A stretch of 64,000 nucleotides of DNA from Tagaea sp. (lineage in GTDB: Bacteria; Pseudomonadota; Alphaproteobacteria; CACIAM-22H2). Shown in pieces: positions 1,128-28,155 of this stretch (its first letter is position 1; each line of letters starts with the position of its first letter). Both the position numbers and the translations under genes were made by a program. The notes under the pieces were generated by a model that was not told the origin of the DNA, did not search any database, and worked only from the letters and a program-made list of their open reading frames with translations. The stretch covers positions 1,696,001-1,760,000 of the forward strand of contig CBDIIB010000005.1 in the NCBI GenBank assembly GCA_965279525.1, written 5' to 3'.

Positions 1128-2053
1128 TTCGGCCGGAACCCGCCCGTGATCGCGTGGATCAGGATCGCCGCCGTCGCCGCGACGTTGAGCGACTGGATCT
1201 TGCCGGTCCCCGGCAGGTTCACGACATGCTCGCACACCGCGAGCGTGGCGGGGGCGAGGCCCACCTCTTCGTTGCCCAGCACGAGGCACACGGGCTTGGG
1301 CCCCGTGGCGAGTTTCTGCATGGGCATCGGCGCACCCGTCCCGATGGCCGTGCCGACGACCGTGTAGAACATGCCGAGCTTGCGCAGCACGTCGGGCAGC
1401 CGGTGGATGCGGTAGACGTCGAGCCACACGAGCCCGCCTTCGGAAACGCGATAGGCGGCCTCGGACGGGGCGGCCTGCCCCGGATGATCGGTGATGGCGA
1501 GATGCGTGAGGCCGAAGAACGCGGCCGTGCGCGCGATGGCGCCCAGATTGTGCGGGTTGCCGATGCCGTCGAGCACGATCAGCGGCTGCCAGCGTGACGC
1601 CCACACGCGCGCCTCGCCCACGTCGAACGGCTTGGCCGGGCGAGGGCTGGTTTCTGCGATGATCCCGCCCGTCAGCGGCGTGCCGGCGATCTTGGCCAGC
1701 GCCTCGGCCGGCACGATGCGGTGCGCGATGTTGCGTTGCGTGGCCTCGCGCAGCAGGGCCGATGCGGCCTGCGCCATGTCGGGGGCGACGATCAGCCGTT
1801 CGACCGATTCCGGTGCGCGCGCGAACAAGGCTTCGACCGCCGGCAGGCCGGCGATGCGCAGGATGTCGCGCCGGTGGCGGCCGTCATGCACGCGCGCGTC
1901 CTGCTGGCGCGCATCTTGCGGACGCCCGCGATTGGGGCCCTCGCGCAGCGGGGCTTCGTCGCGGTTCGGCTGGTCGGACCGGCGATCGGGGGCCCTCGGA
2001 TGGGCCGGGCGGCGGCCCGGGCGCTTGGGCCTGTGCGGGGGCGGGCGGTTCAT
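1124..2053 (-). CDS. SpoU/TrmH-family RNA methyltransferase (YfiF-like)
   Basis: SPOUT motifs LDGIGNPHNLGAIARTA, LVLGNEEVGL, IQSLNVAAT; Arg/Pro-rich N-terminal extension. Confidence 0.9.
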   Translation of the reverse strand: MNRPPPHRPKRPGRRPAHPRAPDRRSDQPNRDEAPLREGPNRGRPQDARQQDARVHDGRHRRDILRIAGLPAVEALFARAPESVERLIVAPDMAQAASALLREATQRNIAHRIVPAEALAKIAGTPLTGGIIAETSPRPAKPFDVGEARVWASRWQPLIVLDGIGNPHNLGAIARTAAFFGLTHLAITDHPGQAAPSEAAYRVSEGGLVWLDVYRIHRLPDVLRKLGMFYTVVGTAIGTGAPMPMQKLATGPKPVCLVLGNEEVGLAPATLAVCEHVVNLPGTGKIQSLNVAATAAILIHAITGGFRPK

Positions 2054-2178
2054 GGCACCGTCCTAGCGCGGAACCGGGACCGTGCGCTACGGGCCTGTCG
2101 TTGCATTGCAGCAGGGATAGCCGTATTTTCCGCGTCCCCTTGGCGCGACTTGGCACCCGAACGGACGGAACGACGAAT

Positions 2179-4068
2179 ATGGACGCGAAACCGGCTCCCG
2201 ACCTCGACCGCATGCGGCATTCGTGCTCGCACGTGCTCGCGGCCGCCGTACTGAAGCTCTTCCCCGACGCGAAGCTGGGCGTGGGCCCGGCGACCGACAC
2301 GGGCTTCTACTACGACATCGAGACGGCCGTGCCGCTGACGACCGAGGACCTGCCGAAGATCGAAGCCGAGATGCGCAAGATCCGCGAGCGCAAGCTGCCG
2401 CTCGTGCGCACCGAAGTGCCGATCGCCGACGCCGTCGCGTTCATGGAGAAGACGGGCCAGACCTACAAGGTCGAACTCCTCGGCCTGCTGGCCACGCGCG
2501 GCTCGACGGCCGCCAAGGGTCTCGAAGACCCCAACCTCGTCGAGGCGGGCGCTTCGGGCGTGACGAGCGTATCGTTCTATGCGCTCGGCGATTTCACCGA
2601 TCTCTGCCGCGGACCGCATGTGGAGCACACGGGCCAGGTGGGTGCGTTCAAGCTCACGAAGCTTGCCGGCGCCTATTGGCGCGGCGATTCGCGCAATCCG
2701 CAGCTCACGCGCGTCTACGGCACCTGCTGGGCCAACGAGCAGGACCTGAAGGCGTATCTCCACCGCGTGGAAGAAGCCGAGAAGCGCGACCATCGCAAGC
2801 TCGGCGCGGCGATGGGCCTGTTCCACCTTCAGGAGGAAGCGCCGGGCACGGTCTTCTGGCACCCGAAGGGCTGGACGCTGTTCCGCACGGTCGAGCGCTA
2901 CATGCGTTCGCGCCTGGAAGCCGACGGCTATGTCGAGGTCAAGACGCCCCAGCTGGTGGACCGCGTGTTCTGGGAGAAATCAGGCCACTGGGCCAACTAC
3001 CGCGACGCGATGTTCATCGCCCGGCCCGGCAAGGAAGGCGAGGAGGAAGACCGTCTCTACGCCATCAAGCCGATGAACTGCCCGGGGGCCGTGCAGATCT
3101 TCCGCGTGGGCCAGCGCAGCTATCGCGAGTTGCCGCTGCGCATGGCCGAGTTCGGTGCCTGCCACCGCTACGAGCCGTCGGGCGCCTTGCACGGCATCAT
3201 GCGCGTGCGCGCCTTCACGCAGGACGACGCGCACATCTTCTGCACCGAGGATCAGGTGCCGGCGGAATCGCAGAAATTCTGCGACCTGCTGCGCGTCATC
3301 TACAAGGATTTCGGCTTTGCCGATCTGGTCGTGAAATTCTCCGACCGGCCCGAGCAGCGCGCCGGATCGGACGAGACGTGGGACAAGGCGGAAACCGCAC
3401 TCGAAAAGGGCGCCGAGGCCGCCGGCCTCGCGACGGTGCGCAATCCGGGCGAGGGGGCGTTCTACGGCCCCAAGCTCGAATTCGTGCTGCGCGACGCCAT
3501 CGGGCGCGACTGGCAGTGCGGCACGCTGCAGGTCGATTTCGTGCTGCCCGAACGTCTCGACGCCGCCTATATCGGCGAGGACGGCAACAAGCATCGTCCG
3601 GTGATGCTGCATCGCGCGATCCTGGGATCGTTCGAGCGCTTCATCGGCATCCTGATCGAGAACTATGCCGGCCGCCTGCCGACCTGGCTGTCGCCGATCC
3701 AGGTCCGCATGGTGCCGATCGCCGACCGGCACGTCGATTTCGCGCGCGACGTGGCGCGTCGCCTGATGGGCTCGGAGTTGCCGCAGACCGACGGCGGCAT
3801 CCGCGTGGATGTCGACGACACGACCGAGCGCATGCAGAAGAAGATCCGCAACGCCCAGCTCGAGCAGATCCCCTACATGCTCGTCGTCGGCGACAAGGAA
3901 GCCGAGATGGGCAAGGTCGCGGTGCGTCTGCGCTCGGGGCGCGATCTCGGGACCATGGCGGTCGAGGACGTGGTCGCGCGCATCCGGGCGGAAGTCGCCA
4001 CGCGGGCCGACATCGTCGACCCGCCGGCACCCGTTCAGCAGGCGCCGAACCAGGCGAAAGCGCCGTAG
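2179..4068 (+). CDS. thrS: Threonine--tRNA ligase lacking the N-terminal TGS domain
   Basis: RHSCSH, DLCRGPH, RDHRKLG, KPMNCP, EGAFYGPK, MLHRAILGSFERF; ATG at 2179. Confidence 0.97.
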   Translation: MDAKPAPDLDRMRHSCSHVLAAAVLKLFPDAKLGVGPATDTGFYYDIETAVPLTTEDLPKIEAEMRKIRERKLPLVRTEVPIADAVAFMEKTGQTYKVELLGLLATRGSTAAKGLEDPNLVEAGASGVTSVSFYALGDFTDLCRGPHVEHTGQVGAFKLTKLAGAYWRGDSRNPQLTRVYGTCWANEQDLKAYLHRVEEAEKRDHRKLGAAMGLFHLQEEAPGTVFWHPKGWTLFRTVERYMRSRLEADGYVEVKTPQLVDRVFWEKSGHWANYRDAMFIARPGKEGEEEDRLYAIKPMNCPGAVQIFRVGQRSYRELPLRMAEFGACHRYEPSGALHGIMRVRAFTQDDAHIFCTEDQVPAESQKFCDLLRVIYKDFGFADLVVKFSDRPEQRAGSDETWDKAETALEKGAEAAGLATVRNPGEGAFYGPKLEFVLRDAIGRDWQCGTLQVDFVLPERLDAAYIGEDGNKHRPVMLHRAILGSFERFIGILIENYAGRLPTWLSPIQVRMVPIADRHVDFARDVARRLMGSELPQTDGGIRVDVDDTTERMQKKIRNAQLEQIPYMLVVGDKEAEMGKVAVRLRSGRDLGTMAVEDVVARIRAEVATRADIVDPPAPVQQAPNQAKAP

Positions 4069-4229
4069 CACGCGTCGAACAGCCCGTTGAGGACCGCGAA
4101 CACGATCAGGTCCAGCACGAGCAGGGCGACGATCAGCGGCACGCCGACGCGCCACGCGAGCAGCGGGATCAGCCGCCATGTCGGCCGCGGGGCGGCGATG
4201 CGCTGTCCGTGCACGGGCTCGTCTTTCAT
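4035..4229 (-). CDS. Small membrane protein (64 aa)
   Basis: ATGA overlap with the upstream GNAT gene; long hydrophobic segment then CYGAFAWFGAC; overlaps the 3' end of thrS convergently. Confidence 0.6.
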   Translation of the reverse strand: MKDEPVHGQRIAAPRPTWRLIPLLAWRVGVPLIVALLVLDLIVFAVLNGLFDACYGAFAWFGAC

Positions 4230-5131
4230 AGATAGGTTCCTGCAAGCGTGCGGGGGACTGCTCCGGTGCCGAGCTTGAAGCGCGCGAGGCCCGGGCTGCG
4301 GTCGGTGTCGATCGTGCCCAGATCCACCTTGCGCACGCCGGCTTCCTTCAGCGCCGTCAGCCCGCGCCACAGCACGAGATTGGCGGCATTGCGCTTGCGC
4401 CCTTCGTCGGTCGCGGCGGCGACGTAGTAGCTGGCATCCGGTCCGTGGCGCACGAAGAGCGCGCCCGCGACCGGCTCGTTACCATCCAGCGCCACGACGG
4501 CAAGCGTGGCGCGCGGCGATTTCAGGCCGGCGATCCGTGCCACGAAATCGCGCGACGGACCTTCGAAGCCCTTCGTCGCGTGCACGTCCTCGTAGCGTGC
4601 GACGACCCAGTCGATCCACTTGCCCTGCTGCGCCGTCTCGACACGAAGGCCCCCGCGCTCGGCGGCGGCAAGCCGGTTGCGCCATTTCTGGTGCAGCCCT
4701 GCACGCAAGGCGGCCTCGTCGCCGGCCGCAAGATCGAGGATCGCGCAGCTGTGGCCGGTATAGACGCGTGCACGCCCCAGCCAGCGCGCCGCGTTGGCCG
4801 GCGTCGCCGCGATCTCGGGGGCGATGAAGCTCAGACGCGCGATGCCGCGCGGGATCGCCGCCAGCAAAGCCGCGGCACCGGCATCGCCGGCGCCCAATGG
4901 AACCGGACCGCGTAGCGCCAGCCACAGCTCGGCGAAACCGAGCCAGCGCCGTCCGACAAGCTGGAGCGCTGCGCATACATTGTCAGGATCCGTCGCGAGC
5001 AGCCGCAACACGGGGCGACCCTGCCAGCGCACCGCGAGGCCATAGTCCCAGTCCTGCTGGAGCGGCCAGAAATCCGCCTGCCGTGCGGCGTTCTCCCAGG
5101 ACCGGCGATCGGGCTCGACAACGATCTGCAT
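4226..5131 (-). CDS. GNAT/FemAB-like acyltransferase
   Basis: PLQQDWDYG, LHQKWRNRL, VAGALFVRHG, DLGTID..PGLARFKLGTG; AAGGAA RBS. Confidence 0.8.
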   Translation of the reverse strand: MQIVVEPDRRSWENAARQADFWPLQQDWDYGLAVRWQGRPVLRLLATDPDNVCAALQLVGRRWLGFAELWLALRGPVPLGAGDAGAAALLAAIPRGIARLSFIAPEIAATPANAARWLGRARVYTGHSCAILDLAAGDEAALRAGLHQKWRNRLAAAERGGLRVETAQQGKWIDWVVARYEDVHATKGFEGPSRDFVARIAGLKSPRATLAVVALDGNEPVAGALFVRHGPDASYYVAAATDEGRKRNAANLVLWRGLTALKEAGVRKVDLGTIDTDRSPGLARFKLGTGAVPRTLAGTYL

Positions 5132-5211
5132 GCCGTTCCTTTTCGGACGCGGCCGGGACAAGGTCAAGCATAGAACACGATAGTATGCTATCGAAGATCG
5201 CTATCGTTCCA

Positions 5212-5226
5212 TTAATTGCACGTAAA
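5212..5226. promoter_or_regulatory. Putative CtrA box
   Basis: TTAA-TTGCACG-TAAA (consensus TTAA-N7-TTAA) between the divergent GNAT gene and paralogue 1. Confidence 0.55.
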
Positions 5227-5276
5227 GATTTGGCCGCTAGGCTCGCCCGTGAGCTCGACAAGCGACGGAGCATGCC

Positions 5277-6269
5277 TTGGCCGAACCTGCGCACGACGAA
5301 GCCGGCGCCGACGCCCTGATGAAGGCGCCGCCGCGCACGGCCGTGGCCCCGCGCCGCTTCGAGTTCGTCCACAAGGTCTTCCAGGTCGAGAACGGCCTGT
5401 TCCAGCCCGATCCTTCGAGCGACGAACCGGTCTACAGCGTCGATCTGGGCGACTTGCGCGCCAACCTTTCCTTTCCCACGCTGCGCGTCTCGTTCGACAT
5501 CGACCCGGACAGCGCCGACTCCCGCCTGCTCGACGAGGTCGCCAAGGCGCTCACGTTCGTCAAGCGCATCCGGCCCGGCGACACGATCCCCAGCGAACTG
5601 CTCGACGGCTCGGCATCCTGGTCGGTCACGCCGCAGTTCCGCGCGATCGCCAAGGGCCGCGTGTGGGTCGGTCTCGTCGCGTGGCTGTCGGGCCAGCGCG
5701 GCGGGCGCGACATCAGCATGATCGAGCTTGCCAAGGTGTCGGAATCGAACGAGGCGAAAGACCACGTGAACATGGCTTTCGGCCGGCTCGCCGAGCATCT
5801 GGGCTACGGGGCCGCCAACAAGGAGATGGTCATCCGGAAGGTCGAGCGGCTGGTCGACGAGCTTTCCTACATCGAGGCGCTGCGCGAGCGCGTCGGGCGC
5901 GCGCGGCGCGTCGTCGAGATCGTCAAGCGGATGCGCAACACCTACAAGCGCGAGAAAAGCGTGCGCGAGGAGATCGAGCGCATCGTGCTGCTGATCGAAC
6001 GGCCGGTCGCCAAGCTCGAGGCGCAGATCACCGAAGTCGACGCCCAGGCCGGCGAGACGTCGAACGCGTTGCGCAACCTGCTGCAGCAGATCGGGTTCAT
6101 CCGCAAGACGCGCGACCGCCTGCATGCCGACCTGATGAAGTGGGACGACATCCTTGCGGCCTGGCAGGACATGGATGCCGAACCCTCGCCGCGCGCGCAA
6201 AAGCTCATCCGCAATACGTACCGCTTCGTCGCAAGATATTTTCCCGCCGAGTCCGAGTGGGTGCGTTGA
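5277..6269 (+). CDS. Unknown protein, tandem paralogue 1
   Basis: 330 aa; GGAG then TTG (alternative ATG 5319); shares PVY[ST]VDLGD, PSELLDG[ST]ASW, EALRERV, MKWD and TYRF with the next two ORFs. Confidence 0.9.
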   Translation: MAEPAHDEAGADALMKAPPRTAVAPRRFEFVHKVFQVENGLFQPDPSSDEPVYSVDLGDLRANLSFPTLRVSFDIDPDSADSRLLDEVAKALTFVKRIRPGDTIPSELLDGSASWSVTPQFRAIAKGRVWVGLVAWLSGQRGGRDISMIELAKVSESNEAKDHVNMAFGRLAEHLGYGAANKEMVIRKVERLVDELSYIEALRERVGRARRVVEIVKRMRNTYKREKSVREEIERIVLLIERPVAKLEAQITEVDAQAGETSNALRNLLQQIGFIRKTRDRLHADLMKWDDILAAWQDMDAEPSPRAQKLIRNTYRFVARYFPAESEWVR

Positions 6270-6297
6270 CGGTTTCGGGAAATCTTGCCGGCATTCG

Positions 6298-6312
6298 TTA
6301 ATCGCCCGGTAA
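6298..6312. promoter_or_regulatory. Putative CtrA box
   Basis: TTAA-TCGCCCG-GTAA (reverse TTAC-N7-TTAAC) upstream of paralogue 2. Confidence 0.55.
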
Positions 6313-6372
6313 GCTCTGCAGCTATAACGTGTTCACAGTCCGTTGGCCGACACCGGTCGATCGGAGGAACGC

Positions 6373-7362
6373 GTGACAGATACCCTGCCGAAAGCACCAC
6401 CTGCCGATCCGTTGAGCGAAGCCCCGCGCGAGGCGTCGCCGCCCCAGCGGTTCGATTTCGCGAACAAGGTCTTCCATGTCGAGAGCGGCGCCTTCCTGAT
6501 CGACGCCACGACCGACGAACCCGTCTATACCGTCGACCTGGGCGACGTGCGCGCCACGCTCACCTTCGCCACGCTGCGCTCGTCGTTCGGCATCGAGAAG
6601 GAACATCCGGACTCGAAACTGCTGGATGAGGTGAAGCGCGCACTTGTCTTCGTGCGCCGCGTGCGCAACGGGGATTCGATGCCGAGCGAGCTGCTCGACG
6701 GTTCGGCGTCGTGGAAGGTCGAAGAACGCCATCGCGTGGTCGCGCGCGGGCGCGTGTGGACCGGGCTCGTGGCGTGGATCTCGGGGGGCAAGTCGGCCGG
6801 CGGCGTCAGCATCGACGAATTCGCGACGATCGCAAACTCCGTCGAGACGCGCACGCGCGTGCAGGCCGCGTTCGGCCAGCTTGCCGACGCACTCGGCTAT
6901 CCGCCGGCGCGGCGCGGCGACGTCGTCGACCAGATCGAGCGGCTGATCGACGAGCTCTCGTTTCTCGAGGCGTTGCGCGAGCGCGTGGGATTGGCCCGGC
7001 GCATCGTCGAGACGCTGCGTGCCTACCGTGTCGCGCTCAAGCGCGAGAAGACCCTCGCCGAGGAGGTCGAGCGCACGATGCTGCTGGCCGAGCGCCCGGT
7101 CGTCGAGCACGAGAAACGGTTGGCGAAGATCGACGCGCAGTCCACGCATGTGCTCGAGATGCTGCGCCGGCTGGCGAATCAGATCGTCCTGATCCGCCAG
7201 ACGCGCGATGCGCTGCATGCCGGGATGATGAAGTGGGATCCGATGCTGGAGGCGTGGGCCGACGCCCCGCCGCAGCCCGGGCCGAACTGTCACCTGTTGA
7301 TCCGCGATACCTACCGGTTCGCGGCCCGGCACTTCCCGGTCCAGCAGGCTTGGAAACGCTGA
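6373..7362 (+). CDS. Unknown protein, tandem paralogue 2
   Basis: GGAGGA then GTG at 6373; same motif set, the most divergent of the three. Confidence 0.9.
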   Translation: MTDTLPKAPPADPLSEAPREASPPQRFDFANKVFHVESGAFLIDATTDEPVYTVDLGDVRATLTFATLRSSFGIEKEHPDSKLLDEVKRALVFVRRVRNGDSMPSELLDGSASWKVEERHRVVARGRVWTGLVAWISGGKSAGGVSIDEFATIANSVETRTRVQAAFGQLADALGYPPARRGDVVDQIERLIDELSFLEALRERVGLARRIVETLRAYRVALKREKTLAEEVERTMLLAERPVVEHEKRLAKIDAQSTHVLEMLRRLANQIVLIRQTRDALHAGMMKWDPMLEAWADAPPQPGPNCHLLIRDTYRFAARHFPVQQAWKR

Positions 7363-7463
7363 TCCGGATGCCGGATTGGCGGTGGCGGCCATAGCAATGT
7401 AGGATGGAGACAATCTAGTGAAATCAGCCCGCCTCGACCGAACGTGCCCACGCGGAGTGCCGA

Positions 7464-8456
7464 TTGACCGAAGTCACGACACAGGCCGGCGAACCCGAAT
7501 CGCTGATGACCGAGGCGCCGCGCGTCGCGGCACCCGTGCGCCGGTTCGAATTCGCGCACAAGGTGTTTAGCGTCTCCGGTGGCTTGTTCCAGATCGATCC
7601 GCAGACCGACGACCCGGTCTACAGCGTCGATCTGGGCGACGTGCGTGCCAACCTCACCTTCGTGGCGCTGCGCGCGGCTTTCGGACTTGCACCCGACGAT
7701 CCGGATTCGAAGCTGCTGGACGAGGTCGGGCGCGGCCTTTCCTTCGTCAAGCGCATCCGGCCGGGCGACACGGTGCCAAGCGAACTGCTGGACGGGACGG
7801 CGTCGTGGACGGTCTCGGACCAGCATCGCGCGATCGCGCGCGGGCGGATCACCGTCGGTCTCATGGCGTGGATGTCGGGCAACCGCAGCACCCAGCAGAT
7901 GAGCATGCTCGAGCTTGCCAAGGTCGCCGAGGATCCGGAGACCAAGGGGCGCGTCCAGGCGGCATTCGCCAAGCTTGCCGACGAGCTGGGGCTGCCGCCC
8001 GACCGCAAGGCCGACGTGGTCGGCCAGATCGACAGGCTCGTCGACGAACTCACCTATATCGAGGCGCTGCGCGAGCGCGTGGCCAAGGCCCGCCGGATCG
8101 TCGAGGTCCTCAAGCGCCTGCGCGCGGTCTACAAGCGCGAACGCGGCGTGCACGACGAGATCGACCGCACGATCGCGTTGGCCGAGCCGCCGGTGGCCAA
8201 GCTCGAATCGCAGATCACCGAGGTCGACGGACAGACCGGCGAGACCGCCAACGCGCTGCGCACGCTGCCGCGCCAGATCGCGTTCATCCGCGAGACGCGC
8301 GACCGCCTGCATGCCCAGCTGATGAAGTGGGACGACATCCTGGTCGCCTGGAACGGCGTGGCCGCCGAGCGTTCGGGCACGGTCCAGCGGCTGGTGCGCG
8401 ACACCTACCGTTTCGTGGCACGCTATTTCCCGGCCGAGTCGGAGTGGGTCCGGTGA
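7464..8456 (+). CDS. Unknown protein, tandem paralogue 3
   Basis: GGAG then TTG; C-terminus TYRFVARYFPAESEWVR identical to paralogue 1. Confidence 0.9.
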   Translation: MTEVTTQAGEPESLMTEAPRVAAPVRRFEFAHKVFSVSGGLFQIDPQTDDPVYSVDLGDVRANLTFVALRAAFGLAPDDPDSKLLDEVGRGLSFVKRIRPGDTVPSELLDGTASWTVSDQHRAIARGRITVGLMAWMSGNRSTQQMSMLELAKVAEDPETKGRVQAAFAKLADELGLPPDRKADVVGQIDRLVDELTYIEALRERVAKARRIVEVLKRLRAVYKRERGVHDEIDRTIALAEPPVAKLESQITEVDGQTGETANALRTLPRQIAFIRETRDRLHAQLMKWDDILVAWNGVAAERSGTVQRLVRDTYRFVARYFPAESEWVR

Positions 8457-8478
8457 GCGGGGACGCGGGGGCGGGCAC

Positions 8479-9810
8479 GTGGCAGGCATAAAGCAGGTCG
8501 AGCGCAGGAAGCTGGGGCGCGAGGAGCTGTCAAAGCGCGTCGCCGCGCACGAACGCTTCTTGAAGAAGCAGTCCGGCGGCGTGCGCCTGCAGATCAATTT
8601 CTGCGTGGCGGCGCGCAACGACCTGCACGACCGCGACCTCGCCGAGGCCGAGCTCGTCGGCGCCGACCTGACCGAATGCGATTTCAGCCGCACGAACCTG
8701 TCGCGCGCCAACCTGTTCGGCGCGAACCTGACCCACGCGTGCCTGACCGACGCCAATCTCAGCCGCGTCGACCTGCGCGGGGCGGTGCTGAAGGGCGCCA
8801 ATCTCGAGGGCGCCGACCTCACGCGCGCGGACATCCGCGACGGGTTCCTGGTGACCGCCAACGAGAACGGCGAGTTCGACTACTCGGTCGTGCTGACGCA
8901 GAAATCGTCGATCGACGGCGCAAAGTTCGCCGGCGCCAATCTCGGCGAGGCGAAGCTGGGCCGGATCGTCGGCCAGTCGACCGATCTCACCAACTGCAAC
9001 CTGCGCGGCGCCAATCTCACCGGTGCGGACCTCTCGAACTCGAACCTGTCGGGCGTGGTGTTCACCGGCGCCGACCTTTCCGACGCGAACCTGTCGAACT
9101 GCAAGCTCAACGGCGCCGTGCTGGTCGGCGCCATCATGGCCGGCGCCAATCTCGACGGCGCCGACATGTGTGCGTGCCATTTCGTCATCGGCGACATGGA
9201 GAAGTGCGATCTTTCGCGCGCCGTCCTGCCGCGCACGCTCGCCGACATCGGCATGTCGTTCGGCGACATGGTCGTGGCGCACAACGACTGGCTGCGCACC
9301 GGCGGCGCGCAAGGTGCCCAGGTCACGATCGACGGCGTGGATCTGGGCCCCATCGAATGGCCCGGCGTGACGCTGTCGGCCGCCAGGCTCCAGCGCATCA
9401 CGCTCGTGGGCGCCAAGCTGCCGTCGGCGCGTTTCGACATGGCCAATCTCGAAGGCTCGATGCTCGCCGGCGTCGACATCTCGAACGGCTCGCTGCGCGG
9501 GGCCAATCTCGACAAGGCGGTGCTCGACGGCGCCAACATGCGCGACACCGATTTCTCGCCGCTGCCGCTGGCGGGCGTGGCCAACAGCAAATGGCCGGCG
9601 CGCGCCAAGGGCATCCGCGGGCACAAGACCGATTTCCGCGGCGCCAACCTGAAGGGCGTCGATTTCACCGAATCCTCGCTGCGCGACGCGGATTTCCGCG
9701 AAGCCGACCTCACGGGGGCACGGCTCGTCGATTGCGACCTGACGGGGGCCGACCTGCGCGAGGCGATCACGGCCGACGCGGACCTGCGCGGCGTTATCGG
9801 GATGAAGTGA
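8479..9810 (+). CDS. Pentapeptide-repeat protein, bipartite
   Basis: Long A[DN]Lxx runs (GADLT, RANLF, GANLE...); two helical cap modules AAHERFL..GG and VAHNDWL..GG..G. Confidence 0.92.
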   Translation: MAGIKQVERRKLGREELSKRVAAHERFLKKQSGGVRLQINFCVAARNDLHDRDLAEAELVGADLTECDFSRTNLSRANLFGANLTHACLTDANLSRVDLRGAVLKGANLEGADLTRADIRDGFLVTANENGEFDYSVVLTQKSSIDGAKFAGANLGEAKLGRIVGQSTDLTNCNLRGANLTGADLSNSNLSGVVFTGADLSDANLSNCKLNGAVLVGAIMAGANLDGADMCACHFVIGDMEKCDLSRAVLPRTLADIGMSFGDMVVAHNDWLRTGGAQGAQVTIDGVDLGPIEWPGVTLSAARLQRITLVGAKLPSARFDMANLEGSMLAGVDISNGSLRGANLDKAVLDGANMRDTDFSPLPLAGVANSKWPARAKGIRGHKTDFRGANLKGVDFTESSLRDADFREADLTGARLVDCDLTGADLREAITADADLRGVIGMK

Positions 9811-9828
9811 CGGAAAAGACCCGCCGCG

Positions 9829-10305
9829 TCAGACGCGGCGCGGGGCGGGGCCGAGGCGGCGCTTTTCCACGGTGAAGCTGCGCGTGGCCGAAGTCGGCCG
9901 GCTGACGATCGGCTGGCTGAGGCCGAGCCGGTCGGCGTCGGGGCGCAGATGGGCCGGCAGCGGGCCGCCGTCCATCGGGCGCGTCGGGCGACGGCGTGCC
10001 GCCTTGGCGCGCGGCGGCTTCTTGGCCTTCACGTCGGCCAGGCGCACCTCGATCTTGCGCTCGCCCACGGTCGACCCGTCGAGGGCGGCGATGGCCGCCT
10101 TGCAGTGCGCCTCGGTCGCCATCGTCACGAAGGCATAGCCGATCGCCTTGCCGGTCGCGGGATCGGTCGGCACCTGGGCCTGGATCACGATGCCGTGCGC
10201 GTCGAACAGGTCGGCGAGCTTCTCGGCATCGATCCCGAACGGCACGTTGCCCACGAACAGGCGCGTGTTGTAGCTCTTGGCGGGTGTGGCGGCGGTCTTC
10301 GGCAT
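9829..10305 (-). CDS. RRM RNA-binding protein
   Basis: RNP2 LFVGNV, RNP1 IGYAFVTM, basic C-terminal tail. Confidence 0.88.
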   Translation of the reverse strand: MPKTAATPAKSYNTRLFVGNVPFGIDAEKLADLFDAHGIVIQAQVPTDPATGKAIGYAFVTMATEAHCKAAIAALDGSTVGERKIEVRLADVKAKKPPRAKAARRRPTRPMDGGPLPAHLRPDADRLGLSQPIVSRPTSATRSFTVEKRRLGPAPRRV

Positions 10306-10571
10306 CTGGTCTGTCCCCGGAGGGCGGCGGACGCGTTGGCCCGGCACCCAAGTTAGCAGTCTGATCCTTTCGCTTCCCCGCGACTCGCGGGAAACGCTCG
10401 TCCCTGATCTGCTATTCCCGCATGGCGCGGGACGCCGACTTGGACTTGCAAAACGCTCACCAGACACATCCTCGTTGCAAACTGCGGCAATAGGATGACA
10501 GCGATTGGGGCTTGAAGGGACCGGCCCGCCGGGCTTAGTTTCGGGCCTTCAGACTCCGGACGGATCGAGAA

Positions 10572-10973
10572 TTGTTCAAGAAATTCCGCGCATTGGTCGT
10601 CGACGACGACGGCACGACACGGCTCATGCTCCGCAACATGCTCGAAGCGCTCGAGTTCATGGCGGTCGAGACGGCCGCAGGCGCCGAGGGCGCCAAGCTC
10701 GCTTTCCAGACGTCGCCCGACCAGTGGCCGGACGTTTTGCTGTGCGATGTCAACATGAAGCCGACCAGCGGGCTCGAACTGGTCGCGTGGATGAAGTCGC
10801 AGCCCAAGATCGTCGCGCACAACGTGCCCGTCGTGATGGTAACCGCGCACTCCGACGCGCCGATCGTGCGCCGGGCGATGGAGCTTGGCGTCTCGGGATA
10901 CCTGATCAAGCCGGTGCAGCCGCTCGCCCTGCGCGTGCGGATGGAAAAAGCGCTGCTGCCGCGCGCGTTCTAG
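10572..10973 (+). CDS. Single-domain response regulator (CheY-like)
   Basis: LVVDDD, LLCDVNMKP, VMVTA, YLIKPV. Confidence 0.9.
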   Translation: MFKKFRALVVDDDGTTRLMLRNMLEALEFMAVETAAGAEGAKLAFQTSPDQWPDVLLCDVNMKPTSGLELVAWMKSQPKIVAHNVPVVMVTAHSDAPIVRRAMELGVSGYLIKPVQPLALRVRMEKALLPRAF

Positions 10974-10974
10974 T

Positions 10975-12417
10975 TCAGGCGAAAAACCGCACGAGCCACA
11001 GGGCGAGGCCCGGGATGGCGACGACGAGCGCCAGGCGCAGCACGTCGGCCGCGATGAAGGGCAGCACGCGCCGGTAGGTCTGCTGGATGGGCACGTTGCG
11101 CGTGATCGCCGAGATGACGAACACGTTGAGGCCGATGGGCGGTGCCGTCAGCCCGATGCCCACGACGATCAGCACGAGGATGCCGAACCAGATGGCGACG
11201 TCGTCCGGCGTCATGCCGAAATCGAGCGCCTGCACGATCGGGAAGAACACCGGCAGCGTCAGCAGGATCATCGCAAGCTCGTCCATCACGGCACCCAGCA
11301 GGATGTAGATCGCGAGCATCGTGACGAGCACGATATAGGGCGACACGCCCATGCCGCCGACGAAATCGGCCACGGAAGTCGGCAGTCGGGCGAGTGCGAG
11401 GAACGCGCCGAACACTTCGGCCCCCAGCAGGATCATGAAGATCATGCCCGAGGTTTCCGCCGTCTGGCGCACGGCATCGACGATCTCGCGCCAGCCGAGC
11501 GTGCGCTGGGCAAGCCCGACGAGCAGCATGGCGAGTGCACCGACGGAAGCACCCTCGGTGGGCGTGAAGATGCCCCCGTAGATGCCGCCGACCACGACGA
11601 TGGCGACGGCGATCGCGGGGACCACTTCGGTATCGACGACCGCGATGACGAGGGCAAGGCCGGCGATGGCGACAGCGAGGCCCGGCCCGATCGATCCGCG
11701 CAAGAACAGCGTCGCGCAGAGCGCCACCAGTGCCGCGGCCGCGAACTTGGGCCAGCGCGCCTTGCGTGCCGGTGCGGCGATCTCGACTGCGGCAAGCGGC
11801 GCAAGCTGCGGGCTGCGGCGCACCATCAGCGCGATGGTGATGCAGTAGAAGATCGCGGCGAGCACGCCGGGGATCAGCGCCGCCTGGAACAGCTTGGCGA
11901 TGTTCTGCTCGGTCGTGATCGCGTAGACGACGAGGATGACCGACGGCGGGACGAGGATGCCGAGCGTACCGCCCACCGCGATGGTCGCCGAGGAAAAGCC
12001 CCGGTCGTAGCCGAAGCGGTCGAGCTCGGGCATCGCCGCGCGCCCGAACGTGGCGGTCGTGGCGACCGACGAGCCGCAGATGGCGCCGAAGGCCGTGCAC
12101 GCCCCGATCACCGCCATGGCAAGCCCGCCGCGCCGGCGCCCGAAGGCACGCTCGGCCGCCAGGAACAGGGCGCGCGCGATGCCCGCGCGTTCGGCAAGTG
12201 CCCCCATCAGGATGAAAAGCGGGATGACCGACAGCGTGTAGTTGGCGAACTGGTGGTAGGTGTTGGTCTTCATGTAGCCGAAGAGCGCGTTCCAGCTCGA
12301 CAGCGTGCAGTAGCCGACCCCGCCCACCAGCAGCATCGCAAGCCCGATGGGGGCGCGAAGCGCGATGAGCGCGAGCATCGCGACGAAGCCCAGCGACGCG
12401 AGAAGTGCTCCGCTCAA
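10975..12417 (-). CDS. dctM: TRAP transporter large permease
   Basis: IPLFILMG, GAICGSSVAT, GTLGILVPPS, GIFTPTEG, TAPPIGLN; TTG start overlaps the dctQ stop. Confidence 0.93.
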   Translation of the reverse strand: MSGALLASLGFVAMLALIALRAPIGLAMLLVGGVGYCTLSSWNALFGYMKTNTYHQFANYTLSVIPLFILMGALAERAGIARALFLAAERAFGRRRGGLAMAVIGACTAFGAICGSSVATTATFGRAAMPELDRFGYDRGFSSATIAVGGTLGILVPPSVILVVYAITTEQNIAKLFQAALIPGVLAAIFYCITIALMVRRSPQLAPLAAVEIAAPARKARWPKFAAAALVALCATLFLRGSIGPGLAVAIAGLALVIAVVDTEVVPAIAVAIVVVGGIYGGIFTPTEGASVGALAMLLVGLAQRTLGWREIVDAVRQTAETSGMIFMILLGAEVFGAFLALARLPTSVADFVGGMGVSPYIVLVTMLAIYILLGAVMDELAMILLTLPVFFPIVQALDFGMTPDDVAIWFGILVLIVVGIGLTAPPIGLNVFVISAITRNVPIQQTYRRVLPFIAADVLRLALVVAIPGLALWLVRFFA

Positions 12418-12991: not shown

Positions 12992-14041
12992 TCAGGCCGC
13001 CGTCGCGTGCTTGGCGAGCAGGGCCTTGAACGAGTCGGCGAGCTTGGCGCCGTCGAGGTTGCGGCCCTTCATCTGGGTGGCCCATTCCGCCCAGACCGGT
13101 TCCGTCGCCCGGACCCAGCGCGCCTTCTCGGCCGCGGTGATCGTCGAGATCGCGTTGCCGCGCGCCTTGACCATGTCGGAGACGGTCTTGGCTTCGGCGT
13201 CCCACATGTTTCCGGCAAGACGCGCGAACGCGGCACCGGAGTTGCGGTCGACGATCTGGCGCAGCTCGCCGGGCAGCCCGTCGTACTTCGCCTTGTTCAT
13301 CGCGAGGAAGAACGAGGCGGTGTAGAGCGTCGGCGTGCCCGGGATGGCGGTGTGGAACTTGACCAGCTCGTGCACGCGCACGGCCGGCACCACTTCCCAC
13401 GGGATGACCGCGCCGTCGATGACCTTCTGCGCGAGGCTTTCGGCGACCTGCGGGACCGGCATGTTGACCGGGGTGGCGCCGAGCGCACGCAGCGCTTCGC
13501 CCGTCAGGCGCGCGGGGCTGCGCAGCTTGAGGCCGCGCAGGTCTTCCATCGTCTTGACCTCTTTCGAGGCGTGGATGAGGCCCGCGTCGTGCGCCCAGAA
13601 CGACAGCAGCTTCAGCTCCTTCGTCTCGTCGGCCAGGTTCGCGTCGGCGAATTCCTGGGCGGCCAGCGAATTGACGATGCCGCGGTCCGACGCGATGAAC
13701 GGCAACTCGACCGTCTCGGTGATCGGGAAGCGGCCGGGCGTGTAGCCGGGCAGCGTCCACACGATGTCGACCACGCCGTCGCGCGCCTGGTTGAAGAGCT
13801 GCGGGGGCGTGCCGCCGAGCTGCATGCCGGGGAAGATCTCGATCTTGATGGCGTTGTTGCTGTCGGCCATGACCTTTGCGGCCCACGGGGCCAGCATCTT
13901 GGCGTGGCCGTTGGACTGCGGCCCGAGGAAGTGGTGCAGGCGCAGCGTGACGGCCTGCGCGCTGGCCGGACGCACGATGGCCGGGGCGGCCATGAGGGCC
14001 GCACCGGCGGCGGTTGCCTGAAGGAAATCGCGACGGTTCAT
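12992..14041 (-). CDS. dctP: TRAP substrate-binding protein, Tat-exported
   Basis: MNRRDFL Tat motif; LHHFL, MQLGG, GYTPGRFP, DLRGLKLR. Confidence 0.93.
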   Translation of the reverse strand: MNRRDFLQATAAGAALMAAPAIVRPASAQAVTLRLHHFLGPQSNGHAKMLAPWAAKVMADSNNAIKIEIFPGMQLGGTPPQLFNQARDGVVDIVWTLPGYTPGRFPITETVELPFIASDRGIVNSLAAQEFADANLADETKELKLLSFWAHDAGLIHASKEVKTMEDLRGLKLRSPARLTGEALRALGATPVNMPVPQVAESLAQKVIDGAVIPWEVVPAVRVHELVKFHTAIPGTPTLYTASFFLAMNKAKYDGLPGELRQIVDRNSGAAFARLAGNMWDAEAKTVSDMVKARGNAISTITAAEKARWVRATEPVWAEWATQMKGRNLDGAKLADSFKALLAKHATAA

Positions 14042-14189
14042 GGGAAAGTTCCTCGCCTGTCGAACCGGATTCGGCCCTGACGGCCGCGCGGTTCTGGTTG
14101 TTCGATGTCGCGGACCCTAGCACGGCGCCCGATTGGTGCAAAAGCCCCGGCGGCGCCCTAAACTCCCGGCAAACCGGAGGATTCGGAAG

Positions 14190-14912
14190 ATGCGCGAACA
14201 TGCCGTGGCCCGCCGCGAACTGGCTGCCGCCCTGCGCTGGGCGGCCCGGCTGGGCCTCAACGAAGGCAACTGCAACCATTTCAGCCTGCAGGTCGCACCC
14301 GACCGCTTCTTGGTCAATCCGTGGGGGCCGCACTGGCGCGAGATGAAGGCGAGCGACCTGCTGCTGATCGACGCGAAGGGCACGATCCTCGAAGGCAAAT
14401 GGCCGATCGAGGACACGGCGCTGCACATCCACACGCGCATCCATATCCGCCATCCCGATGCCGTCGCCGTGTTCCACACCCACATGCCCTATGCGACGGC
14501 ATTGTGCGCGATCGACGGCGGGCGGCTGGAGCCGTGCATCCAGTCGGGCCTGCGCTTCTATGACCGCATCGCCTACGACGAGGACTACAACGGCTTCGCG
14601 CACGGGCCCGAGGAGGGCGACCGCATGGCCGCCAAGATGGACGGCAAGCCCGTGCTGTTCCTCGCCAACCACGGCATCATCGTCACCGGGCCGACGGTCG
14701 CCCAGGCGTTCGACGATCTCTATTATCTCGAGCGCGCCGCGACCATCCAGGTGCTCGCGATGTCGACCGGCAAGCCGTTGCGCATCGTCCCCGGCCAGAT
14801 CGCCGCGCGCACCGCGCGCGAGAAGGCGCAGGGGCGCAAGGCCTACGACGAAGCGCACTTCGCCTCGATCCTGCGCATGCTCGACCGCGAGGAACCGGAG
14901 TATGCGGAGTAG
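14190..14912 (+). CDS. Class II aldolase/adducin family protein
   Basis: EGNCNHFS, IHTRIH, VFHTHMPY, LFLANHG. Confidence 0.9.
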   Translation: MREHAVARRELAAALRWAARLGLNEGNCNHFSLQVAPDRFLVNPWGPHWREMKASDLLLIDAKGTILEGKWPIEDTALHIHTRIHIRHPDAVAVFHTHMPYATALCAIDGGRLEPCIQSGLRFYDRIAYDEDYNGFAHGPEEGDRMAAKMDGKPVLFLANHGIIVTGPTVAQAFDDLYYLERAATIQVLAMSTGKPLRIVPGQIAARTAREKAQGRKAYDEAHFASILRMLDREEPEYAE

Positions 14913-15041
14913 GGCGGTGCCACGCCTTTCCGTTGTAAAATGAAATTCCTATGATAGGATGATGTGTGGCTAACCATGACCCGTGGAAGGCCAGTGCGCG
15001 CCTTGTAGTCAAAAAGCGCGCGGACGTTACCAGCCTTCGTT

Positions 15042-15080
15042 TTCAATGGGTTAAATAGGTTACCGTAACCTGTCGTAACC
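15042..15080 (+). repeat. 39-bp dispersed element, copy A
   Basis: TTCAATGGGTTAAATAGGTTACCGTAACCTGTCGTAACC; 32/39 identical to the reverse complement of 49058-49096. Confidence 0.8.
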
Positions 15081-15123
15081 CATTCATTTTGCAGCCGCAG
15101 CGCAGCCATACAAAATTCGCAAC

Positions 15124-15152
15124 TTGACAAAATGAACGTTCATTCATTTTAT
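15124..15152 (+). promoter_or_regulatory. tetR promoter with overlapping palindromic operator
   Basis: TTGACA at 15124-15129; inverted repeat AAAATGAA-N6-TTCATTTT at 15129-15150, just before the ATG at 15160. Confidence 0.75.
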
Positions 15153-15159
15153 ACGCGCC

Positions 15160-15792
15160 ATGCCCCGCCTTGCCCCCCAGTCCGTCGCCGACCGCCGCGC
15201 CCGCATCCTCGATGCGGCGAAGAGCTGCTTCATCCGCTACGGCTTCCACAGCGCGTCGATGCAGCAGATCTGTGCCGCCGCCGAGATGAGTGCGGGCAAC
15301 CTCTACCGCTATTTCCCGTCGAAGGACGCGATCATCGAAGGCCTGTGCGAGCGCGACATGAGCGAGGCCGCCGAAGGCTTCGCCGCCGCGCGCGCAGGCG
15401 CCGACGTTCTCGCCGGTCTCGAAGGCATGCTGATGGAGTACATGTGGAAGCGCCCGCGCGAGCAGCTCTGCATGTGGACCGAGATTTCGGCCGAAGCCAC
15501 GCGCAGCGACGCGGTCAACCGCAACTCGCGGCGCGTCTACGCCTTCATCGAGAAGAGCCTTGGCGACGTGCTCGCGCACGGCATGAAAGCGGGCAGCGTG
15601 CGCAAGGGCATCGATACCGCCAGCTACGCCGCCTTGATGAACGCGGTGTTCGAAGGGCTGATGGTGCGCCGCGCGGTCGCGTCCGATTTCGATCCGCGCC
15701 CGACCATCCGCCAGTTCATGTCGCTCGTGCGCGCCGGGCTCGCCCCCGCCGTTTCCATCCCGAAAAAGAAGACCAGAGGAGCGCGCAAGTGA
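15160..15792 (+). CDS. TetR/AcrR family regulator
   Basis: RILDAA..F...GF..ASMQQI.....SAGNLYRYFPSK HTH. Confidence 0.93.
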   Translation: MPRLAPQSVADRRARILDAAKSCFIRYGFHSASMQQICAAAEMSAGNLYRYFPSKDAIIEGLCERDMSEAAEGFAAARAGADVLAGLEGMLMEYMWKRPREQLCMWTEISAEATRSDAVNRNSRRVYAFIEKSLGDVLAHGMKAGSVRKGIDTASYAALMNAVFEGLMVRRAVASDFDPRPTIRQFMSLVRAGLAPAVSIPKKKTRGARK

Positions 15793-16958
15793 TGCGCCGG
15801 ATATCGATACTCGTCGCCGCCCTGATCGCCATCGCGATGCCCGCACACGCCCAGACCGCCAAGGCCGAAGCCGCGCGCGGCAACCCGCCGCCGGCCGTGT
15901 CGGTCGTGGTCAGCGCCACGCGCGAGCTTGTCGACACGGTGCTCGTGACCGGCACGCTGGTGGCGCGCGAGGAAGTGCTGGTGCTCGCCGAGAACGAAGG
16001 CGCGCGCATCGCCGAAGTGCTGGTCGACGAGGGCGAAAGCGTGCGCCAGGGCCAGGTGCTGGCCCGGCTGTCGCGCGACCTGCTCGACGCCCAGTTCGCC
16101 CAGAACGCCGCCCAGCTTTCGCGCGCCGACGCGTCGATCGCGCAGGCCCGCGCCCAGATCGTCCAGGCCGACGCCGCCAGCGTCGAAGCCCAGCAGGCAC
16201 TCGAGCGCGCGCGCTCGCTTCGCAATTCCGGCAACGCCACCGAAGCCACGCTCGAACAGCGCGTGTCCGCCGCCCGCTCGGCGCAGGGGCGCCTCTCCGC
16301 TTCGCGTGACGGGCTCGCCTTCGCCATCGCCGAGAAGGCCCAGGTCGAGGCCCAGCGCCGCGAACTGCAGGTCCGCATCGAGCGCAGCGACGTCAAGGCG
16401 CCGCGCGCCGGCACGGTGTCGCGCCGCACGGCGCGCATCGGCCAGATGACCGGTGCCGGCGGCGAAGCGCTGTTCCGCATCGTCGCCGACGCCGAGATCG
16501 AACTGGAAGCCGAACTCCTCGAAACACGCATCGCCAGCCTCGCGGTCGGCCAGAGCGCGCGCATCTCGATCAGCGGCCGGCCCGACATCGCCGGCACCGT
16601 GCGTCTTGTTCCCGCCGAGATCGACCGCACGACGCGGCTGGGCAAGGTGCGTATCGCCCTGCCTCGGGATGCGGGCCTGCGGATCGGTGCCTTTGCGCGC
16701 GGCTCGATCGAGGTCGCGCGCCGCACGGTGCTGGCCGTTCCGGTCGGCGCCATCGTCTATGCCGACGACGGCGCCGCCGTGCAGATCGTCGACGGCACGA
16801 AGATCGTCGTGAAGCCGGTCAAGATCGGCCTCGTCGCCGACGGCCATGTCGAGATCCGCGAGGGCCTGACGCCTGATCTTCTGGTCGTGGCGCGCGCGGC
16901 AGGCTTCCTGCGCGAAGGCGACCAGGTCCGCCCGCTTCTCGCCGACAAGGCGCGCTGA
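15792..16958 (+). CDS. RND efflux membrane fusion protein
   Basis: Signal peptide, VDEGESVRQGQVLA lipoyl half-motif, coiled coil, VKAPRAGTV. Confidence 0.92.
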   Translation: MRRISILVAALIAIAMPAHAQTAKAEAARGNPPPAVSVVVSATRELVDTVLVTGTLVAREEVLVLAENEGARIAEVLVDEGESVRQGQVLARLSRDLLDAQFAQNAAQLSRADASIAQARAQIVQADAASVEAQQALERARSLRNSGNATEATLEQRVSAARSAQGRLSASRDGLAFAIAEKAQVEAQRRELQVRIERSDVKAPRAGTVSRRTARIGQMTGAGGEALFRIVADAEIELEAELLETRIASLAVGQSARISISGRPDIAGTVRLVPAEIDRTTRLGKVRIALPRDAGLRIGAFARGSIEVARRTVLAVPVGAIVYADDGAAVQIVDGTKIVVKPVKIGLVADGHVEIREGLTPDLLVVARAAGFLREGDQVRPLLADKAR

Positions 16959-24700: not shown

Positions 24701-24706
24701 GCCCGC

Positions 24707-25420: not shown

Positions 25421-25555
25421 CGCCGAATCTCCCTGTTGCGGGCCTTGCCCGGCCGGACGTTGCCGCATCGCACTCCCTTCCTCTATAGTCGCCCGGGCCG
25501 TGTTGCAACGCAACAAGGGGCGGCAGCACATCACATCGGGGGCGCGCGGGTTCGG

Positions 25556-26044
25556 ATGGATCAGTACGAGGAACTTCACGGTCTCTATTTCGAGGATCTG
25601 AAGGTCGGCCAGACCGCGATTTTTGCCAAGACCGTCACCGAGACCGACATCGTGCTGTTCGCAGGGCTGACCGGCGACAACAATCCCGTGCACATCAACG
25701 AGGTGTTCGCCGCCGCCACGCCGTTCTCGGGCCGCATCGCGCACGGCATGCTGACCGCCAGTTTCGTCTCGACGGTTCTCGGCACGCGCCTGCCGGGACC
25801 GGGCGCCATCTATCTGAGCCAGACGCTGCGCTTCAAGGCGCCGGTGCGCGCGGGCGACACGGTCGTGGCGCGCGCGACGGTCAAGGAACTGGTGCCGGAG
25901 AAGCGCCGTTGCACGCTCGAGACGACGATCATGGTCGATGACAAGACCGTGCTCGAGGGCGAGGCCGTCGTGCTCGTGTCGAGCCGTGCGGCACTGACCG
26001 CGCATCGCGCGAGCGCGCGCGAGACATCGGCTGCAGGCGACTGA
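25556..26044 (+). CDS. MaoC-family (R)-specific enoyl-CoA hydratase (PhaJ-like)
   Basis: FAGLTGDNNPVH, RIAHGML, LPGPGAIY. Confidence 0.9.
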   Translation: MDQYEELHGLYFEDLKVGQTAIFAKTVTETDIVLFAGLTGDNNPVHINEVFAAATPFSGRIAHGMLTASFVSTVLGTRLPGPGAIYLSQTLRFKAPVRAGDTVVARATVKELVPEKRRCTLETTIMVDDKTVLEGEAVVLVSSRAALTAHRASARETSAAGD

Positions 26045-26052
26045 ACGAACCA

Positions 26053-28145: not shown

Positions 28146-28155
28146 GTCAGGACCT

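Follow-up and report, generated by a model that had tools for sequence, protein, structure and literature searches.

The stretch analysed here is a 64,000 nucleotide (nt) segment of Tagaea sp. (GenBank assembly GCA_965279525.1, contig CBDIIB010000005.1, positions 1,696,001 to 1,760,000 of the forward strand), referred to below as the window. It carries an array of four genes on the plus strand, in which three tandem copies of a gene of no named family, here called paralogues 1, 2 and 3, are followed by a pentapeptide-repeat gene (gene 4). The coordinates of the array and of the features around it are given in Table 1. The segment is G+C-rich (~0.65-0.70) alphaproteobacterial chromosome DNA, its composition shows no break at the locus, and its nearest relatives are metagenome-assembled genomes (MAGs) labelled Tagaea.

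Paralogue 1 shares 51% identity with paralogue 2 and 62% with paralogue 3, and at the DNA level the array appears as a repeat of three copies, spaced 1093 and 1094 nt apart and 64-73% identical. An earlier reading of the window made from its letters (the sequence-only reading) had described three intact tandem open reading frames (ORFs) with shared motifs, and all of these, PVY[ST]VDLGD, DS[RK]LLDEV, PSELLDG[ST]ASW, DEL..EALRERV, MKWD and R.TYRF.AR.FP....W.R, are present in the three paralogues. It had also placed a pentapeptide gene 22 bp past paralogue 3, with which both the coordinates and a match to PF00805 agree. The G+C content at third codon positions is 0.87-0.91 in all four frames. 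Non-ATG starts had been proposed as well; those of paralogues 1 and 3 stand, each being a TTG behind a GGAG, but paralogue 2 more probably begins at the GTG at 6373 than at the TTG at 6343. Across the four proteins, 19-residue stretches reach Kyte-Doolittle maxima of only 0.74-1.27, too little for a membrane helix and in keeping with the lack of transmembrane segments read earlier. The intergenic gaps inside the array are 22-103 nt, no plus-strand terminator-like site was found between 5277 and 9810, and the hairpin behind gene 4 is the likely end of the transcription unit. Rfam gave no match in positions 4000-11000 of the window.

Table 1. Features of the array and its promoter regions (positions in the window)
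Feature	Position	Strand	Remarks
GNAT/FemAB-like acyltransferase	4226-5167	-	Pfam Acetyltransf_6, E=2e-13; divergent from paralogue 1
Inverted repeat CGATAG-N4-CTATCG	5178-5193	.	perfect 6+6; hairpin flagged on minus; 20 nt upstream of box 1
CtrA-like box 1	5212-5226	.	TTAATTGCACGTAAA; 7/8; 51-65 nt before paralogue 1 start
Paralogue 1	5277-6269	+	330 amino acids (aa); TTG start, GGAG 6 nt upstream
CtrA-like box 2	6298-6312	.	TTAATCGCCCGGTAA; 7/8; 61-75 nt before GTG 6373
Paralogue 2	6373-7362	+	329 aa from GTG 6373; GGAGG 5 nt upstream
Paralogue 2, longest ORF	6343-7362	+	339 aa; TTG 6343, without Shine-Dalgarno sequence
Paralogue 3	7464-8456	+	330 aa; TTG start, GGAG 7 nt upstream
Pentapeptide-repeat gene (gene 4)	8479-9810	+	443 aa; GTG start, 22 nt past paralogue 3 stop
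G+C-rich palindromic hairpin	9822-9840	- (scored as terminator)	between convergent pentapeptide and RRM genes

The sequence-only reading had recognised no named family in the paralogues, and none was reached with curated models. The best score of paralogues 1-3 was 15.5 bits in Pfam-A, where the cut-off was 28.3, and 17.6 bits in NCBIfam, where it was 300; we take these sub-threshold scores to be helical noise. When 52 members of the family were scanned singly, no Pfam family was matched by more than eight of them. PADLOC returned nothing significant for the paralogues (best E=0.0022, 14.6 bits), the PHROG models gave no significant match, and a profile search of Protein Data Bank (PDB) sequences reached a best E of only 0.034. 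A literature search found nothing on the family, and as a family without name or locus tag is hardly searchable, its absence from print is not claimed.

A model of paralogue 3 was made with AlphaFold2 from a 52-row alignment and is confident and compact, with a predicted local distance difference test score (pLDDT) of 87.7 and a predicted TM-score (pTM) of 0.85. It consists of a small alpha/beta N-domain (approximately residues 25-118; strands 41-44, 51-57 and 60-65, helices 66-73 and 80-91), for which separate modelling gave a pLDDT of 81.2, and a C-terminal helical bundle (residues 119-321) that includes one helix of 44 residues. The beta-rich N-terminus and helical C-terminal half proposed earlier are both recovered, in the strands between 41 and 65 and the helices of 119-321. 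The folds were compared with the PDB and BFVD by Foldseek, and TM-scores are given normalised to the query (TMq). At E<=0.001 the whole model had no match in the PDB (best E=0.28, best TMq 0.23 among the 50 matches listed) or in BFVD (best E=0.57), and the N-domain had none in the PDB (best E=0.64, TMq 0.34 among the matches listed). In the ESM Atlas the best value for the whole protein was 0.81, a level often reached by shuffled sequences where 0.9 is meaningful, and residues 22-140 gave no usable match.

The nearest look-alikes of the paralogues, all weak, were SMC/Rad50 coiled coils, the bacterial dynamin-like helical domain PF21808 and the ImpA_N/TssA-like and ExsD clusters of the ESM Atlas, and what these share is long alpha-helices. 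They matched at 13-18 bits (E 0.001-0.1) or at Atlas cosines of 0.78-0.81, far under the curated cut-offs (28-700 bits) or the Atlas level of 0.9, whereas the paralogue is a compact bundle with an alpha/beta N-domain. An SMC/Rad50 coiled coil was considered in its own right and rejected, with only 10-18 bits against cut-offs of 300-1087, a length of 330 aa, no match to a P-loop domain and a compact model. Across 52 homologues 24 columns are invariant, all of which are kept in the three copies of the window. The N-domain contains an invariant loop, P105-x-E107-x-x-D110-G-x-x-S114-W115, and the conserved faces of the helices carry the motifs ELSYIEALRER, IRxTRDxLH and TYRFxAR. Judged from the model, the paralogues are a soluble two-domain protein family and fold outside every kind compared. 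The novelty of the locus lies in this family and fold, and the four-gene arrangement is a lineage-specific elaboration.

Relatives of the paralogues are numerous. Word-index protein searches gave 159 and 269 matches, and among the 120 rows listed for each search the source name was 'hypothetical protein' apart from a JGI 'ParE' label. An exhaustive search with a profile hidden Markov model (HMM) gave 630 clusters (50% identity, E<=1e-3), 313 of them at E<=1e-30; the 150 clusters listed are 225-444 aa long and nearly all are matched in a single stretch. No fused forms were seen among proteins of 624-2000 aa, which is weak evidence. At least 573 genomic stretches, in contigs from one genome per species, encode a relative. 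All counts at the level of loci rest on the best 80 of these at least 573 genomic matches, which amount to 78 loci (handles L001 onwards) or, with the window, 79 sources. The loci inspected come from Tagaea, Azospirillum, Nitrospirillum, Niveispirillum, Skermanella, Oleisolibacter, Aerophototrophica, Sneathiella and other Rhodospirillales.

Copy number was determined by running the family HMM, which scores paralogue 1 at 462.9 bits and paralogue 2 at 444.6 bits, over all ORFs of the loci. A single copy was present in 60 of the 78 loci, and two to three tandem copies in the other 18. A quick maximum-likelihood tree (IQ-TREE, with SH-aLRT, the Shimodaira-Hasegawa-like approximate likelihood ratio test, as support) follows taxonomy, with Sneathiella, Azospirillum, Nitrospirillum and Tagaea each forming a clade. 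As the tree and copy numbers read, the family is vertically inherited in Rhodospirillales and Sneathiella-type Alphaproteobacteria, and its ancestral state is one copy.

The Tagaea clade of the window comprises 25 rows (support 98). Within it the paralogue-3 type is basal and short-branched, and paralogues 1 and 2 form a sister pair (support 97), each with an orthologue clade of its own (support 100 each). From this order and the orthologue clades we infer two successive tandem duplications, the first giving paralogue 3 and a common ancestor of 1 and 2, the second splitting that ancestor into 1 and 2, both of which predate the splits between the sampled species. Not every locus shows all three types: L006 and L008 have one paralogue-2-type and one paralogue-3-type copy, and L007 has the same two in the stretch examined, with its 5' flank, the expected site of paralogue 1, lying outside that stretch. 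The tree leaves out the first copy of L009, inside which the contig begins. The gene was also duplicated independently in a second Tagaea group (Tagaea B, L011-L014), in L018/L024/L028 and in L047, which with the lineage of the window makes at least four lineages.

The ratios of nonsynonymous to synonymous substitution rates (dN/dS) against orthologues were 0.17-0.33, 0.26-0.42 and 0.09-0.39 for paralogues 1, 2 and 3, respectively, and 0.10-0.27 for gene 4; these are upper estimates because dS is compressed by codon bias. Paralogue 2 is the fastest-evolving copy and paralogue 3 the slowest. By these ratios all three paralogues are real genes under purifying selection. The earlier description of the copies as old and maintained duplicates is borne out by orthologues of each in other Tagaea genomes and by dN/dS values of 0.09-0.42.

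CtrA-like boxes were scored as TTAA-N7-TTAA with at most one mismatch, equivalent to 7 of the 8 consensus positions. The window contains nine such boxes against 0.37 expected from shuffles, an excess that is overstated as the shuffles ignore AT-rich intergenic patches. Apart from those before paralogues 1 and 2, three lie in the intergenic region of flgB and the flhB-like-fliP pair (30449, 30485 and 30597), one precedes a methyl-accepting chemotaxis protein (MCP) gene, two overlapping ones precede flgE (50076 and 50087) and one precedes a histidine kinase gene. These seven are at flagellar, chemotaxis or kinase promoters, and the motif therefore marks the kinds of promoter that CtrA controls elsewhere. 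The sequence-only reading had likened the boxes of the array to those at flgB, a comparison with which the three boxes in the flgB intergenic region agree.

In matching 7 of 8 positions and lying 51-75 nt before the starts, the boxes of paralogues 1 and 2 resemble those of CtrA-activated promoters, and the flgB/fliP, flgE, MCP and kinase promoters of the window bear the same kind of box. Unlike canonical CtrA promoters, neither has a perfect 8-of-8 site, and CtrA binding is only predicted. CtrA motifs of both the full and the half type are found close to -35 in the activated promoters of Caulobacter (PMC4287350); the boxes found here belong to these classes and may be placed alike. Box 1 is kept as TTAA-N7-TAAA in 7/7 orthologous Tagaea promoters, whose proteins are ~65-91% identical, and lies within a longer block, TTAAnTnCACGTAAAGAT, that is invariant in all seven aligned promoters. 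Box 2 is present in only two of six aligned sources, the window and its closest relative L001, and its 15-mer recurs identically upstream of the single-copy gene in Nitrospirillum iridis (L026). Of the two CtrA-like boxes claimed before, both exist, box 1 being kept throughout its alignment and the kind being enriched in several genera, but box 2 is seen only in that pair of the aligned sources.

Boxes precede 31 of 103 family genes (-250 to +60) compared with 47 of 1086 other genes in the same DNA, and are thus ~7 times commoner before family genes (Fisher p=3e-15, which is not a true probability since the genomes are related). The clades with boxes are Tagaea A and B, Nitrospirillum, L023, L040, L041, L047 and a set of five MAGs (L019, L020, L022, L025 and L033), which fall into two clades close to where the group of Skermanella, Sneathiella and Azospirillaceae has its base. 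Nitrospirillum promoters have two boxes 25 nt apart. The sequences of the boxes differ between clades and their positions are similar.

The overall best explanation, to which we give a little less than even confidence, is that the paralogues belong to an orphan cytoplasmic family that is regulated by CtrA, acts as a partner-binding adaptor and has been built into a lineage-specific array in Tagaea. Membership of the family in the CtrA regulon is probable on the evidence of the boxes. The array would be one transcription unit, running from a CtrA-type promoter before paralogue 1 to the hairpin past the pentapeptide gene, with box 2 as a more recent addition ahead of paralogue 2, and it would be expressed together with the flagellar and chemotaxis regulon; that a single CtrA-driven unit extends through the pentapeptide gene and is co-expressed with that regulon is an evenly balanced proposition. 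The protein itself would be a non-enzymatic adaptor that engages a partner through the conserved loop of the N-domain and the conserved faces of its helices. The paralogues would be subfunctionalised versions, acting in mixed oligomers or as partner-specific forms, and the pentapeptide beta-helix would be a lineage-specific accessory co-expressed with paralogue 3. Taken jointly, the adaptor, the subfunctionalised paralogues and the accessory are possible and no better than doubtful. A complex prediction for paralogues 2 and 3 (133-row alignments) gave 0.11 and 0.09 where the mark is 0.32, and as it was run without controls it counts neither way.

Several observations weigh against this explanation. 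The box counts lack phylogenetic independence, the divergent promoter that holds box 1 is shared and the box could serve the GNAT-like gene instead, and a sigma-70 scan found no promoter hexamers inside the array. The fetched Azospirillum, Niveispirillum and Skermanella loci lack a full box with at most one mismatch before the family gene, as do 13 of 14 Sneathiella loci, the sole match there, in L038, being at -7 and looking like chance. CtrA control is therefore not universal in the family, or it acts through weaker sites in these genera. All 11 aligned Sneathiella promoters (L038, L039, L057, L058, L060, L063, L065, L067, L072, L075 and L076) carry a block of ~30 nt, GGTAACC(A/T)TTTGTATAGAATG...CTAT.AT, which is found ~80-120 nt before the family gene and ~17 nt before a TAT-rich hexamer, so placed that TAACC would overlap -35. 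The block resembles a promoter in which TAACC covers -35, and its [GT]TAACC, we assume, resembles the TTAACCAT half-site of CtrA. This half-site precedes 23 of 102 family genes and 77 of 1086 others, a post hoc enrichment that serves as a lead only, the pattern having been chosen after the Sneathiella alignment was viewed. The many invariant charged or polar residues are as compatible with an enzyme or a ligand pocket as with an adaptor, or more so. Finally, the neighbours of the family in other genera are housekeeping and not flagellar genes.

The last point was drawn from a clustering of all ORFs within 7 kb of a family gene and a Pfam annotation of the neighbours at 14 representative loci. 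No cluster besides the family itself occurred in more than 22 of the 79 sources, and none was conserved across genera. The locus is syntenic within Tagaea, between thrS and the RRM gene, and elsewhere the neighbours differ, being phosphotransferase system (PTS) genes with ahcY in L018 and L024, and uvrA with trmFO in Sneathiella. Azospirillum lipoferum has a glutamine-synthetase-like gene and a FAD oxidoreductase upstream and smc, dciA and mutY downstream, and A. brasilense (L034) likewise has a glutamine-synthetase-like gene upstream. A BatA/DUF4159 gene is among the neighbours in Nitrospirillum and Oleisolibacter. Such company would suit a housekeeping protein concerned with nucleic acids, the chromosome or stress and unrelated to CtrA or motility, for which the boxes would be AT-rich chance or would belong to neighbouring genes. 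The 72 of 103 family genes that have no box with at most one mismatch, and the sharing of the box 1 promoter with the GNAT-like gene, are consistent with this. It leaves unexplained, however, why boxes are seven times commoner before family genes than before the other genes of the same loci, why they recur across clades at similar positions with different sequences, and why the remaining boxes of the window are all at flagellar, chemotaxis or kinase promoters; on balance we regard a housekeeping role as rather unlikely, though a serious rival.

Somewhat less probable again, and on the whole unlikely although likewise a serious rival, is a reading in which the paralogues, of new fold, are enzymes or regulators that bind a small molecule or nucleotide, and differ in substrate or ligand. 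The invariant acidic, basic and histidine residues would then make up an active or ligand site. The invariant columns in 52 sequences include D81, E107, D110, S114, R128, E195, E200, R276 and R279, and H121, D255, D280 and H283 are nearly invariant; P105, G111, W115, R276 and R279 are invariant across 133 sequences, down to 26% identity. A compact model with no extended coiled coil would also be in keeping with a catalytic or binding protein. Yet no recognisable catalytic motif or nucleotide-binding loop is present, the paralogues match no enzyme family or fold in Pfam, NCBIfam or Foldseek, and a metabolic neighbour conserved across genera was not found.

The sequence-only reading had presented the four genes as a candidate system, a cell-cycle- or motility-linked cytoplasmic complex such as a hetero-oligomeric scaffold with a beta-helix partner; in its strict form this would make the pentapeptide protein an obligate partner of the three paralogues. 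Gene 4 matches PF00805 in eight stretches, with 235.2 bits against a gathering threshold of 20.2, has a basic, helix-like N-terminal stretch and a non-repeat insert at approximately residues 245-300, and its PDB sequence matches are pentapeptide beta-helices, the best being designed and natural ones as well as QnrB1 and MfpA. Like the known pentapeptide-repeat proteins (cyanobacterial Np275/Np276, All3740, Rfr and Alr5209; Qnr and MfpA), it consists of tandem five-residue repeats over most of its length. At 443 aa it is about twice as long as Qnr and MfpA (equivalogs ~180-220 aa), from which it also differs in its basic N-terminal segment, in its ~55-residue non-repeat insert and in that no link to topoisomerases is seen. 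Its scores with the NCBIfam models of Qnr (91.1 against 240 bits), MfpA (74.4 against 360) and HetL (167 against 260) are far below the cut-offs, so that a topoisomerase-protecting protein of the Qnr or MfpA type was rejected and gene 4 is taken as a generic long pentapeptide beta-helix; the Alr5209 model is passed only because a profile of 113 positions matches five times.

Orthologues of the pentapeptide gene are adjacent to family genes only in the window and L001-L009, that is in 10 of the 79 sources, all of Tagaea subclade A, within which they are 83-96% identical. In all ten the gene adjoins a paralogue-3-type gene, from which it is separated by a few to 22 nt. This constant position, a protein more conserved than the paralogues themselves, and the maintenance of all three paralogues would be expected of a dedicated four-gene system. 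Such a system is nevertheless very unlikely, as 69 of the 79 sources have no pentapeptide neighbour, the family gene stands alone in 60 of the 78 loci, and duplications without a pentapeptide gene are found in Tagaea B, L018, L024, L028 and L047. Tagaea B has instead a receiver-containing hybrid histidine kinase of 830 aa (10794-13286 in L011, also in L012-L014) at the syntenic position of the pentapeptide gene, between the family genes and the RRM gene. The claim of a conserved system could not be upheld; as the loci compare, the pentapeptide gene was acquired by one Tagaea subclade directly after paralogue 3, and the four-gene set is an arrangement of that subclade and not a feature of the family at large.

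A mobile defence or toxin-antitoxin module, as might be suggested by tandem paralogues followed by a repeat protein and by the JGI label 'plasmid stabilization system protein ParE' on P0062, P0065, P0072 and P0121 among the listed homologues, is scarcely credible given that there is no PADLOC or PHROG match and none among 50,697 phage records, that the only plasmid matches are to five Azospirillum replicons of chromid size ('hypothetical protein') where the gene lies amid housekeeping genes, and that the tree follows taxonomy, the locus is syntenic in Tagaea and the composition shows no anomaly. The ParE label is unsupported, as ParE is absent from the Pfam families matched by two or more of the 52 members.

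The promoter region shared by paralogue 1 and the GNAT/FemAB-like gene contains a second conserved element beside box 1. The inverted repeat in Table 1, together with a flanking GGTCAAG...GAACAC block, is almost invariant in 7/7 Tagaea promoters, and may be an operator for a second regulator of either paralogue 1 or the GNAT-like gene. An ATG at 5131 is conserved in the promoter alignment and is the more likely true start of the latter gene.

On the upstream side the array is flanked by this divergent gene and by thrS, and on the downstream side by the convergent RRM-domain gene, a CheY-like receiver and a TRAP transporter. The longest ORF of thrS (1762-4068) has 768 aa compared with 618-653 aa in relatives, its tRNA_SAD and core domains are placed correspondingly later, and the first ~120 codons are probably not translated. 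The RRM protein (9829-10467, minus strand; RRM_1 E=2e-16) adjoins the locus in both Tagaea groups, and its score of 61.9 with the NCBIfam 'RNA-binding regulator' model is below the cut-off of 100.

Three contigs came from MAGs whose labels disagree with the placement of their family genes. L040, L046 and L047 are labelled Hydrogenophaga, Rhizobium and Asaia, respectively; the genes of L040 and L046 nest within the Niveispirillum clade (branches 0.008-0.06), those of L047 fall in a divergent group shared with a Tagaea-labelled MAG, and all three contigs are probably mis-binned. In L047 the two family copies are directly followed by a Cas9-like gene (13358-16591, 1077 aa; domains HNH_4, RuvC_III and Cas9 alpha-helical lobe).

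Elsewhere in the window, positions 27015-32313 contain flhB, fliR, fliQ, fliE, flgC and flgB on the minus strand and a short flhB-like gene and fliP on the plus strand, and further flagellar genes are flgE (within 50076-51607) and fliG (55390-56412). A CHASE2-adenylate/guanylate cyclase (742 aa) adjoins a convergent CRP-family regulator at 22472-26053, and the ORF of the latter has an extension of ~240 N-terminal residues ahead of its cNMP-binding domain. Two long minus-strand ORFs of 409 and 663 aa (42217-43446 and 44671-46662) have coding-like G+C and no Pfam or NCBIfam match.

To return to the orphan, CtrA-regulated adaptor family that is preferred here, a more far-reaching form of this explanation would make the family a CtrA-controlled component of motility and polar development in Rhodospirillales-type Alphaproteobacteria, with a fold that lacks any solved relative, in which the duplications turned a homo-oligomer into a hetero-oligomer and the pentapeptide protein was recruited as a regulator or partner in Tagaea; we consider this distinctly unlikely. 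Growth of R. centenum and Magnetospirillum, both Rhodospirillales, does not require CtrA (PMC8116508), and titles cited in that article tie CtrA of the order to swarming, encystment and an ancestral motility role.

The family, with 630 clusters and members in Azospirillum, Nitrospirillum, Skermanella, Sneathiella and Tagaea, has been missed by all curated family libraries. It can be approached in tractable species with a single copy, Azospirillum brasilense and Nitrospirillum amazonense, of which the latter has boxes. If the link to CtrA is true, a conserved new player would be added to one of the best-studied regulatory circuits of bacteria, and this in an order where CtrA is thought to retain its ancestral role in motility.

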